4,387 bases of DNA. It comes from a virus. Taxonomy: Duplodnaviria > Heunggongvirae > Uroviricota > Caudoviricetes. Under the pieces are notes generated by a model. That model did no database searches. It saw only the letters and a program-made list of their open reading frames with translations, and was not told the DNA's origin. This document shows positions 499 to 3,836 of this stretch, in pieces (position 1 is the stretch's first letter; each line of letters begins with the position of its first letter). Made by a program: the position numbers and the translations under genes. The stretch is from the IMG/VR virus record IMGVR_UViG_2703719367_000020. One strand, given 5' to 3'.

Positions 499-517
499 AG
501 ACACACCGGAGAAACGC

Positions 518-541
518 CACCGCCACTGTGGTGGTGTTTTT
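518..541 (+). terminator. Rho-independent terminator of the upstream gene
   Basis: CACCGCCA (518-525) pairs with UGGUGGUG (529-536), 8 bp with one G.U, 3-nt loop CUG, followed by TTTTT (537-541); begins 20 nt after the TAA stop. Confidence 0.6.
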
Positions 542-629
542 CTTATCTGGTGTTATTGAAAATATTTTCAGATAAATATTACCTGGATGATGGTTAAGAT
601 TAATTTATTTAATTTTGGGGAGAAATCTC

Positions 630-1087
630 ATGAAACTGTTAAACATTCTTTTAGCTGTTGTTTTAACTGTAAGTACAACCGTAGCACAAGCAGAATCGGC
701 ATTGTAGAAGCGTAACAGTGTTGCTGGCACCGATATGTTCAGTATCGGTAGTGTTTCTATTAACTGCACGATTAATCCAGAAGACAACAATTTGCTACCA
801 CATATGAGTGGATTTACGGTCATACCCCCACCCCGCTAAATCAGTACGATTCTGATATTATTTTTATCATCAACGGTAAAAAGTATTCGGCCCCACCTGT
901 CGACGGAACACGAATGAATAAGAATGCGTGGGTATACTTTATCGATGCTATCGGTGAAGCCACGAAGCTCGACGTTTTAGTAAACGGTAAGAAAGTCGAC
1001 AGCTATACCGCAAATATCAAAAATGAGAAAAAGACTTTGGGTAACAAATTCTACGGTAGCTGCTGGAACACCTGGTTCCAGGAATAA
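630..1087 (+). pseudogene. Disrupted gene for a small secreted protein: signal-peptide ORF ends at a premature TAG, and the C-terminal body is in a different frame
   Basis: GGGGAG (617-622) sits 7 nt before ATG 630. Translation 630-704 gives MKLLNILLAVVLTVSTTVAQAESAL, a Sec-type signal peptide with an AQA-E cleavage motif, then TAG 705-707. The same frame continues to TAA 837-839. A second frame is open from 776 to TAA 1085-1087 (…YDSDIIFIINGKKYSAPPVDGTRMNKNAWVYFIDAIGEATKLDVLVNGKKVDSYTANIKNEKKTLGNKFYGSCWNTWFQE) and has no ATG/GTG/TTG start before codon 914. Confidence 0.5.
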
Positions 1088-1097
1088 TTGATAACGT

Positions 1098-1122
1098 GGT
1101 GTAAAACACCTCAGTTTAATTT
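1098..1122 (+). terminator. Weak hairpin plus T-rich tract after the decayed gene; possible terminator
   Basis: GGTGT (1098-1102), loop AAA, ACACC (1106-1110), followed by tcagtttaattt. The stem is only 5 bp, so support is weak. Confidence 0.25.
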
Positions 1123-1211
1123 AATACAGTGAGTGAAAATGAATATCATAAAAATATTTTTGTTTTGGATGTCACATGTTTTATTAACTGAATGATTAAC
1201 AGGAGAATCAG

Positions 1212-1751
1212 ATGAACTGGCATTATGAAAAAAATGGTGTACGTTATGATAACGTAACAGAGGAAGATATTATCGAACGTATCCGGCGTGGTGAACTGAA
1301 TGCATCAACACTGGTGTGGCAACAGGGCATGCTGGAATGGCAGCCAGTTTCAGCCACATCACTGGCGGAAATACTGAAACAAAGTGAAGTTCCTCCGGCC
1401 CTTCCGGGTCACCGCATTCCCGGAGACGTTGTCTGGACGCTGGCATTTGCCCCTTTGATTGGGTACATACTTGAGATGTGGACTGCCGGGCTGAACGGTA
1501 TGTCATTTGAACGGGCTTATGATGCAGTCAGCGAAGGCCAGTACTGGTTTATCTCTCTGATTCTGAATATTGCTCTGGGATATCTGGATGAACGAAAACT
1601 CCGTAAATCTGGTGTTGATACCACAGCATTTGGCTGGCTGGCATGGCTGATCCCGGTTTATCTGTGGCGTCGGGCAAAGATCCTCGGGCAAAAACCTGCT
1701 TATTTCTGGGTCTGGCTGGTTATGCTGATACTGGTGTTATTTACGATCTGA
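1212..1751 (+). CDS. Membrane protein with an N-terminal GYF-like (DUF4339-type) domain and about four C-terminal transmembrane helices; function unknown
   Basis: AGGAGA (1201-1206) sits 5 nt before ATG 1212; 179 codons to TGA 1749-1751. The N-terminus WHYEKNGVRYDNVTEEDIIERIRRGELNASTLVWQQGMLEWQPV matches the recalled W-Y..NG..G.V.......G.L...TLVW..GM..WQP pattern. Hydrophobic segments: VVWTLAFAPLIGYILEMW, YWFISLILNIALGYL, AFGWLAWLIPVYLW, AYFWVWLVMLILVLFTI. Confidence 0.8.
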   Translation: MNWHYEKNGVRYDNVTEEDIIERIRRGELNASTLVWQQGMLEWQPVSATSLAEILKQSEVPPALPGHRIPGDVVWTLAFAPLIGYILEMWTAGLNGMSFERAYDAVSEGQYWFISLILNIALGYLDERKLRKSGVDTTAFGWLAWLIPVYLWRRAKILGQKPAYFWVWLVMLILVLFTI

Positions 1752-2020: not shown

Positions 2021-2434
2021 ATGAAAAATATCATCACTATTTTAATGATTGCAGTTATCAGTTTCTTTACTGCTAATGTATCAGCAAACAATGCCGTTCC
2101 TTTACCGACCAACCTGACTGACGTTACTGACGGTACAGAATTCTGGTGTCAGGGTACTGATACTATCGACGGAGGTTGTGAATACCTGGGCACATCCAAA
2201 GACATGCAATACGGTCTGGTACACGCCATGGGGGGTACAGCGTGCTGGGATGGTTTATACGGCGTAATTAATTTCTATACCGGTAAAGCCCAGACCATCA
2301 AATACAACAACAATCAAAGTTGTGAAGGCAACATCACCGCCGGTTTCGTTACCCTAAAAAACGGTAAACCGGGCGTTAAACTTTACGACAATACGATTCA
2401 TAAGATTGTCGGGCTTGACGAAATCAAAATTTAA
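2021..2434 (+). CDS. Small exported protein with signal peptide and four cysteines; function unknown
   Basis: GGAG (2009-2012) sits 8 nt before ATG 2021; 137 codons to TAA 2432-2434. The N-terminus MKNIITILMIAVISFFTANVSA is a typical Sec signal peptide (cleavage likely after VSA). The mature part has Cys in WCQG, GGCEY, TACWD and QSCEG. AT-rich codon usage; followed by a terminator. Confidence 0.8.
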   Translation: MKNIITILMIAVISFFTANVSANNAVPLPTNLTDVTDGTEFWCQGTDTIDGGCEYLGTSKDMQYGLVHAMGGTACWDGLYGVINFYTGKAQTIKYNNNQSCEGNITAGFVTLKNGKPGVKLYDNTIHKIVGLDEIKI

Positions 2435-2519: not shown

Positions 2520-2779
2520 ACCTGAAAATACATGACGGGCTGTACATTACTTTTATTTTCCGAAGATCCTTTCTCACGCAAACAGACAGTTGCTGTCATA
2601 ACAGCTTACCGCAATGTGTTTATCCAGGAATGCATTTCCGGCGGATTATCCGCAACGCGGAAGGTCAGCGACGCTGGCGCTGCCGGAATTCTGAACCCTA
2701 TGCAGGCAAACAACTTAATGCGTGGCTCACCAGTGAAGGGCTTCCCGGACAATAAACCTCATTCATTTCACCCATCAGG

Positions 2780-2844: not shown

Positions 2845-3663
2845 ATGCGATTAGCCAGTCGTTTTGGTTATACAAACCAGATACGCCGTGAACGTCCACT
2901 GACACATGAAGAGCTGATGCACTATGTTCCCAGTATTTTTGGAGAAGACCGGCATACCTCCCGCAGTGAACGCTATGCGTACATTCCCACCATCACCGTA
3001 CTGGAAAGTCTGCAGCGGGAAGGCTTTCAGCCATTCTTCGCCTGCCAGACACGTGTGCGTGACCCGGGTCGCCGGGAATACACAAAACACATGCTGCGTC
3101 TGCGCCGTGACGGGGAGATAACCGGACAACATGTCCCTGAAATTATTCTGCTCAACTCCCATGACGGTTCATCCAGCTACCAGATGCTGCCGGGTTACTT
3201 CAGATTCGTCTGCCAGAACGGCTGCGTCTGTGGTCAGTCTCTGGGAGAAGTGCGTGTTCCGCACCGGGGAAATGTGGTGGACAGAGTCATTGAAGGGGCT
3301 TACGAGGTGGTGGGCGTGTTTGACCGGATAGAGGAGAAGCGTGATGCCATGCAGTCGCTGGTCCTGCCGCCACCGGCACGCCAGGCACTGGCGCAGGCGG
3401 CACTGACTTACCGTTATGGTGACGAACATCAGCCCGTCACCACCGCCGACATTCTGACACCACGACGCAGGGAGGATTACGGTAAGGACCTGTGGAGTAC
3501 TTATCAGACCATCCAGGAGAATATGCTGAAAGGCGGGGTTTCCGGGCGCAGTGCAAAAGGAAAACGTATCCACACCCGTGCCATTCACAACATCGACACC
3601 GATATTAAGCTCAACCGCGCATTGTGGGTAATGGCAGAAACGCTGCTGGAGAGTATGCGCTGA
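2845..3663 (+). CDS. DUF932 family protein (YfjQ/YafZ-like, typical of CP4-type prophage-like islands)
   Basis: AAGGAG (2834-2839) sits 5 nt before ATG 2845; 272 codons to TGA 3661-3663. MRLASRFG…YIPTI…GFQPFFACQTRVRDP…HMLRLRR…PEIILLNSHDGSSSYQMLPG…RFVCQNG…EVRVPH…NRALWVMAETLL matches recalled E. coli DUF932 proteins. Family assignment is from memory, not a search. Confidence 0.88.
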   Translation: MRLASRFGYTNQIRRERPLTHEELMHYVPSIFGEDRHTSRSERYAYIPTITVLESLQREGFQPFFACQTRVRDPGRREYTKHMLRLRRDGEITGQHVPEIILLNSHDGSSSYQMLPGYFRFVCQNGCVCGQSLGEVRVPHRGNVVDRVIEGAYEVVGVFDRIEEKRDAMQSLVLPPPARQALAQAALTYRYGDEHQPVTTADILTPRRREDYGKDLWSTYQTIQENMLKGGVSGRSAKGKRIHTRAIHNIDTDIKLNRALWVMAETLLESMR

Positions 3664-3836
3664 TGAAACATATCCCTGAAGGCGTGATTCAGGTACCAGA
3701 ATCACCCGACGCCCCGGAGGCGCTGCCGGGGTGTCGTTCCATTTCTGATGATGACCTGTGCGCCTGGTGTACCCGTCTGCTTTACCGTCCCGGAGAACTC
3801 AGTCTGTGCAGACTGAGTACAGGCAATGGCATCTGA
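3663..3836 (+). CDS. Small hypothetical protein (57 aa), probably translationally coupled to the DUF932 gene
   Basis: ATG 3663-3665 overlaps the DUF932 TGA stop (ATGA at 3661-3665); GGAGAG (3648-3653) sits 9 nt upstream. Product MKHIPEGVIQVPESPDAPEALPGCRSISDDDLCAWCTRLLYRPGELSLCRLSTGNGI, stop TGA 3834-3836. The track's ATG 3624 start lies inside the DUF932 gene and is less likely. No family recognised. Confidence 0.45.
   Translation: MKHIPEGVIQVPESPDAPEALPGCRSISDDDLCAWCTRLLYRPGELSLCRLSTGNGI

Follow-up and report, generated by a model that had tools for sequence, protein, structure and literature searches.

Whether positions 630 to 1087 of a 4,387-nt stretch of DNA, hereafter the window, hold a gene for a small exported protein that has lost its function, or a sequence that only gives that impression, is the question raised by this locus. 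An ORF there opens with a signal peptide and stops at TAG after 25 codons, and the remaining body can be read only by joining two frames. A first-pass annotation, made from the letters of the window, had described it as a decaying gene for a secreted two-cysteine protein, recently inactivated or possibly disrupted by a sequencing or assembly error. The locus was re-examined here by comparing it with intact alleles, by counting and ordering its lesions across complete Escherichia coli genomes, and by analysing the family and genomic neighbourhood of the encoded protein.

The remnant and its intact counterparts

The features of the locus are collected in Table 1. The N-terminus encoded from ATG 630 is a classical Sec signal peptide with a single Lys, a hydrophobic core of 12 residues and A-Q-A at -3 to -1, and both this ORF and its early stop were confirmed from the sequence. 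Beyond the stop, the frame of the ATG is open again from 708 to a TAA at 837-839, and a second frame is open from 776 to the TAA that closes the gene, the two open frames overlapping at 776-836. A promoter scan of the region upstream of 630 returned no convincing sigma-70 promoter, the number of sites equalling the shuffled expectation.

Table 1. Features of the locus and of neighbouring genes, in window coordinates
Feature	Position	Strand	Details
Shine-Dalgarno-like GGGGAG	617..622	+	7 nt 5' of ATG 630; kept from the ancestral gene; read from the sequence
5' remnant ORF, 25 codons + stop	630..707	+	Sec-type signal peptide MKLLNILLAVVLTVSTTVAQA, AQA at the predicted cleavage site, then ESAL; aligns with residues 1-25 of intact 152-aa proteins
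Lesion 1, nonsense codon TAG (Trp26)	705..707	+	From alignment to the FORC_029 and O111 alleles
Ancestral codons 27-58	708..802	+	Frame still that of ATG 630; conserved Cys46 in SINC
Lesion 2, 1-bp deletion junction	802..803	+	C lost from CACACTATG; rest of the gene frame-shifted
Ancestral codons 59-152 + TAA 1085-1087	803..1087	+	Out of frame with the ATG; invariant Trp101, conserved Cys145
Leftover 57-aa ORF, internal Met	914..1087	+	WP_001370911.1, hypothetical protein; sole part annotated by RefSeq
GYF_2/DUF4339 gene	1212..1751	+	Intact, 179 aa; N-terminal GYF domain, hydrophobic C-terminal half
Cys-rich secreted protein gene	2021..2434	+	Intact, 137 aa; signal peptide, six cysteines
DUF905 remnant	2532..2760	+	Second pseudogene
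Cys-containing ORF	3663..3836	+	57 aa; ATGA overlap with the DUF932 stop at 3660-3663; RefSeq hypothetical protein, no Pfam family

A megablast search with window positions 500-1210 against 5,426 complete E. coli genomes recovered the whole stretch in 77. In strain FORC_029 (L002:6122-6580, ~94% nucleotide identity) the same position is occupied by an uninterrupted 152-codon gene, and in O111:H8 strain 7-58 72A (L010:331-789) the same gene is annotated at full length (WP_040084849.1). As in the window, the intact alleles lie between a patatin-like phospholipase gene and a GYF/DUF4339 gene, the flanking genes being identical. The existence of these syntenic alleles allowed both lesions to be pinpointed, the alignment revealing exactly two disabling differences: base 706 is A in the window and G in intact alleles, turning TGG (Trp26) into TAG, and one C is absent between 802 and 803, leaving CACA-TATG. 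With TGG as codon 26 and the additional C at 802|803, neither of which the window has, intact alleles encode the full 152-aa precursor; the Shine-Dalgarno site of the intact allele reads GGAGAG, one base off that of the window. In-silico repair of both lesions yielded a 152-aa protein with 89% identity to the intact protein P0001 (E 1e-105).

The locus thus combines an intact orthologue at the same genomic position with lesions that block the full product, and we estimate at roughly 93% the probability that window positions 630-1087 are a non-functional pseudogene of a YfjT-family (PF27224) gene, from which no useful product would be expected. Much of the first-pass annotation is borne out by these alleles. 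The decay of a gene for a small exported two-cysteine protein is supported by the intact syntenic orthologues; the search for an intact orthologue that it had proposed succeeded at the same locus and mapped the exact nonsense and indel positions; and the absence of any intact homologue, which it had named as counting against its reading, was not what was found. The frame switch is likewise real, the frame at 776-1087 being open, but it lies at 802|803, within the overlap of the two open frames, and not near 780, some 25 bases further downstream than had been thought.

It might instead be argued that the surviving ORFs are functional small proteins, the 25-codon ORF encoding an independent leader or membrane peptide, or the 57-aa ORF having become a new small gene. 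The former retains its ribosome-binding site and ATG 630, and the latter is annotated by RefSeq and recurs as the same fragment in public protein clusters (P0008, 57 aa). The 25-codon ORF, however, is a derived truncation of the 152-codon gene and no conserved unit, unlike the conserved leader peptide that the first-pass annotation had named as counting against its own reading, and its signal-peptide residues vary among TAG alleles (T16/A16, A20/T20). As for the 57-aa ORF, it corresponds to the C-terminal third of the domain, has neither a signal peptide nor Cys46, leaves out about two thirds of the fold, is preceded at ATG 914 by only a weak GGA, and owes its RefSeq entry to an automatic ORF call. 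A functional small protein is accordingly very unlikely. The locus may nonetheless give rise to a fragment, the candidates being the 57-aa ORF, which begins at an ATG in the downstream frame that had been said to have no usable start, or the product of an internal Met at 735.

In RefSeq the locus is not flagged as a disrupted YfjT-family gene, only the 57-aa leftover being labelled. The intact allele is also treated inconsistently: in FORC_029 it is annotated as a 117-aa protein starting from Met36, without the signal peptide (L002:6227-6580), and in O111:H8 as the full 152-aa protein.

Allele census, order of the lesions and decay

Codon 26 was typed by megablast with allele-specific 51-mers, for which a central mismatch leaves no 28-base exact word, so that only the matching base is returned. 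Among the 5,426 complete E. coli genomes, 78 copies were counted in 77 genomes, comprising 37 copies with the window-type TAG, 37 with TGG, and 4 with TAG on a second background (TAG only). The alleles at least 99% identical to the window (all 37) align over 501 bp of the record, which indicates that the deletion is present in each of them, and the other listed alleles align over 502 bp. Eight fetched loci (L003-L010), together with L001 and L002, fell into three states: intact with TGG, TAG only, and TAG with the deletion. Complete reading was confined to three TGG-type alleles, two from genomes and one from a metagenome contig, the remaining ones being typed at codon 26 and, if listed, by alignment length. 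Strain A10 (NZ_CP195143.1) matches the locus in two places; with 37 TGG copies counted for the 36 genomes that make up the 90-95% identity class, the 51-mer typing implies that A10 has one dead copy and one of the TGG type, presumably located on two islands.

In a neighbour-joining tree rooted with a 74%-identical TGG homologue, a single clade holds all TAG alleles and the deletion alleles are nested within it, placing the stop first and the deletion later. The most parsimonious history is one change from TGG to TAG followed by the deletion in one sublineage, with the reservation that recombination between alleles could distort both the tree and the order. The TAG alleles were found in O157, O145, O111, porcine ETEC and environmental strains; they are 3-5% apart, and their subclades differ by 15-22 of 459 bases. 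Such divergence, spread over many serotypes, indicates that the inactivation is not recent, as had first been supposed, although recombination could blur this picture. The three allele states could serve as lineage markers of the island.

Substitution patterns differ between the dead and the living copies. dN/dS ranges from 0.73 to 1.12 within the TAG clade and is 0.10 between the intact allele and the outgroup. Nonsynonymous and synonymous changes stand at 17:4 between the window and a TAG-clade allele (L008), against 53:64 between the intact allele and the outgroup (Fisher p = 0.004; counts small). The window allele carries V60E, F114L and V133E at positions that are hydrophobic family-wide. 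Within the limits of these small counts, the contrast in dN/dS fits a relaxation of constraint after the first lesion.

These patterns also bear on programmed recoding, in which read-through of the TAG and ribosomal frameshifting would still deliver a full-length exported protein. Both halves of the gene are open apart from the two lesions, and the TAG-only alleles keep a 152-codon frame that is otherwise open; with some 20 substitutions, however, the absence of further stops would be unsurprising. No slippery heptamer is visible at the junction CCACATATGAG; compared with functional alleles, in which no frameshift is required, the site has simply lost 1 bp. A dN/dS near 1 within the TAG clade and non-conservative changes at conserved core positions also argue against recoding. 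Natural amber suppression, to our knowledge, is absent in wild-type E. coli, which further counts against recoding. Taken together, we regard recoding as extremely unlikely.

The suspicion that the gene is really intact, and that the TAG and the missing base are sequencing or assembly artefacts, is reasonable in principle, single-base indels being common in assemblies. Also in favour of that suspicion is strain 319, otherwise 99.9% identical to the window, where the GYF_2/DUF4339 gene is annotated as frameshifted (L001:6713-7256), a lesion absent from the window. The full 4,387-bp window is, however, 100% identical in nine independently assembled complete O157 genomes, an agreement by which we consider such an error to be ruled out for practical purposes. 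Moreover, both lesions occur in 37 complete genomes of differing serotypes, hosts and laboratories, two independent read-set assemblies and 4 additional genomes have the TAG by itself, and the deletion lies outside any homopolymer run. The error option in the first-pass annotation can therefore be set aside.

The pseudogene reading suggests the following course of events. The ancestral gene, located in the variable slot for cargo that runs from the patatin-like gene to DUF932 in a CP4-57-like island, encoded a precursor of 152 aa, in which an alpha/beta domain of ~130 aa followed a Sec signal peptide with a predicted cleavage site after AQA21. A G-to-A transition converted the conserved Trp26 codon to TAG, so that translation now ends four residues past the predicted cleavage site. 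Loss of the C at 802|803 followed later in one sublineage, shifting the frame, and the non-conservative replacements V60E, F114L and V133E then built up at conserved core positions.

The YfjT family and the fold of the intact protein

The intact allele matches E. coli K-12 YfjT with 31% identity over 142 aa (E 1e-21), and the repaired window protein does so with 31% identity (E 2e-19). The family name comes from precomputed PF27224:YfjT labels carried by proteins P0001-P0005 and by genes in L011, L016 and L018; the intact protein had no PF27224 match in the local Pfam-A copy, which apparently does not contain that model. Scans of the intact protein against Pfam-A, NCBIfam and PADLOC gave no significant family (best Laminin_G_3, E 0.014, sub-threshold), and PHROGs returned a weak match to phrog_3429 (E 2.5e-5), of unknown function. 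An exhaustive HMMER search of 1.84 billion representatives recovered only 37 relatives with E up to 0.001, most of them of ~150 aa, and a one-genome-per-species collection, scanned once with an alignment and once with P0001, yielded no relative. No functional study came up in a literature search for yfjT.

Trp101 is invariant among 28 aligned family sequences, in which Trp26, Gly33 and both cysteines, Cys46 (SINC) and Cys145 (GSCW), are near-invariant. The repaired reading reproduces the family architecture, namely a signal peptide and one domain of ~130 aa with Trp26, Cys46, Trp101 and Cys145, and the nonsense mutation falls on a conserved Trp, five residues into the predicted mature protein. 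That the open frames arose by chance, with no gene ancestry, might be read into the lack of a significant Pfam-A or NCBIfam family for the intact protein, but it is dismissed by the intact orthologues at 89-99% identity, the 37 family members, the strength of the K-12 YfjT match and the presence of the conserved W/C positions, the matches of the repaired protein to P0001 and YfjT identifying the frames as homologous coding sequence.

One public entry within the family calls for caution. P0002 (35 member sequences; L016:75-533, L017:166-624) has Gln at codon 26, the sole departure from Trp26 in the family, which was considered as a reversion and rejected because the underlying DNA reads TAG; the gene caller evidently used a code with TAG as sense (Gln). 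P0002 is a pseudogene masked as an intact protein and stands as a data-quality warning, the Gln at the stop position being a gene-caller artefact. Two further arrangements were noted among relatives. On a metagenome-derived contig (L011:74-1025), YfjT-family genes of 151 aa and of 152 aa stand in tandem, each with ~31% identity to the other's group, and a further small protein with a signal peptide comes after them. Multi-domain architectures occur among the distant relatives: some of these proteins, 298, 1026 and 1802 aa long, contain between 2 and 7 matching stretches.

AlphaFold2 modelling of intact P0001, with a 26-sequence alignment, produced a confident, compact alpha/beta domain over residues 26-150 (pLDDT 89.3, pTM 0.80). 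A Foldseek comparison of this model with the PDB gave no match at E 0.001 or below, PDB sequences searched with a profile gave none of significance, and a BFVD fold search retrieved a few similar-sized phage proteins of unknown function at TM 0.5-0.6. Judging from the signal peptide, the ancestral product would have been exported to the periplasm, where the mature domain probably contained a Cys46-Cys145 disulfide, as the conservation of both residues suggests. The dead copy itself is an ordinary pseudogene in the accessory part of an island and carries little weight for biology at large; the YfjT family, which is without a solved structural relative, is the more interesting target.

The island slot and related systems

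The locus sits in a CP4-57-like (cryptic-prophage-like) island of E. coli O157. Dynamin-like, RdcB-like and patatin-like genes lie 5' of the pseudogene; it is followed by the GYF/DUF4339 membrane protein, the 137-aa Cys-rich secreted protein and the DUF905 remnant and, further downstream, by DUF932, antirestriction, JAB/RadC, DUF987 and CbeA/CbtA-type genes.

Several of these neighbours were characterised in their own right. For the 137-aa secreted protein, PHROGs gave phrog_8968 (unknown function, E 9e-37), and neither Pfam nor NCBIfam gave a family; the idea that the pseudogene is its paralogue was rejected, no similarity being found between the two, and it showed no similarity to K-12 YfjS either. 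At the DUF905 locus, the C-terminal half of that family's profile (PF06006, positions 31-68 of 70, E 2e-7) is matched by an ORF at 2630-2755, and the ORF that begins at 2532, apparently in a different frame, presumably contains the N-terminal half. In RefSeq the corresponding locus of FORC_029 is marked 'DUF905 family protein, frameshifted', and that of strain 319 is given as fragments.

The stretch from the patatin-like gene to DUF932 is a variable slot (L013, L014, L015). It holds no annotated gene in O157:H7 TR01, unrelated hypothetical genes in strain L73, and a different, intact YfjT-family paralogue in EcPF14, and behaves like a cargo-exchange point. The intergenic DNA that follows the patatin-like gene, at 510-624, is conserved in ~2,290 E. 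coli genome records.

The EcPF14 paralogue (WP_001239911.1, 155 aa, resembling P0007) occupies the same position, directly after the patatin-like gene. Upstream DNA and the part coding for the signal peptide are common to EcPF14 and the window (87.6% identity over 510-670), whereas the mature domain of the EcPF14 paralogue has diverged strongly (the similar P0007 has 43% identity with P0001) and the downstream cargo genes of EcPF14 are different. Retention of the promoter region and signal peptide next to very different mature domains would fit a polymorphic envelope factor. On that speculative and unlikely proposal, YfjT would be a periplasmic domain with a fold absent from the PDB, carried in a hypervariable CP4-57-like cargo slot and placed under diversifying selection, for example in phage or contact-dependent exclusion or immunity; the dead alleles in O157, O145, O111 and ETEC lineages would then represent adaptive loss, not neutral decay.

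The closest named system is yfjT of the K-12 cryptic prophage CP4-57 (b2637, 155 aa, PF27224), which belongs to the same family and matches the ancestral protein in length. The two have in common an N-terminal signal peptide, a conserved Trp just past the predicted cleavage site, an INC motif with the conserved Cys, the invariant Trp101 and a C-terminal Cys. Each gene lies within the accessory part of an island of the CP4-57 type, and both islands have DUF932, antirestriction, RadC/JAB, DUF987 and CbtA/CbeA-type genes as well. They differ in state and in placement: K-12 yfjT is intact and follows yfjR-ypjK-yfjS downstream of DUF932, whereas the window copy, a pseudogene by virtue of its TAG and 1-bp deletion, follows the dynamin-RdcB-patatin genes upstream of DUF932. 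The window gene is a divergent paralogue or allele class of the family and not the orthologue of K-12 yfjT.
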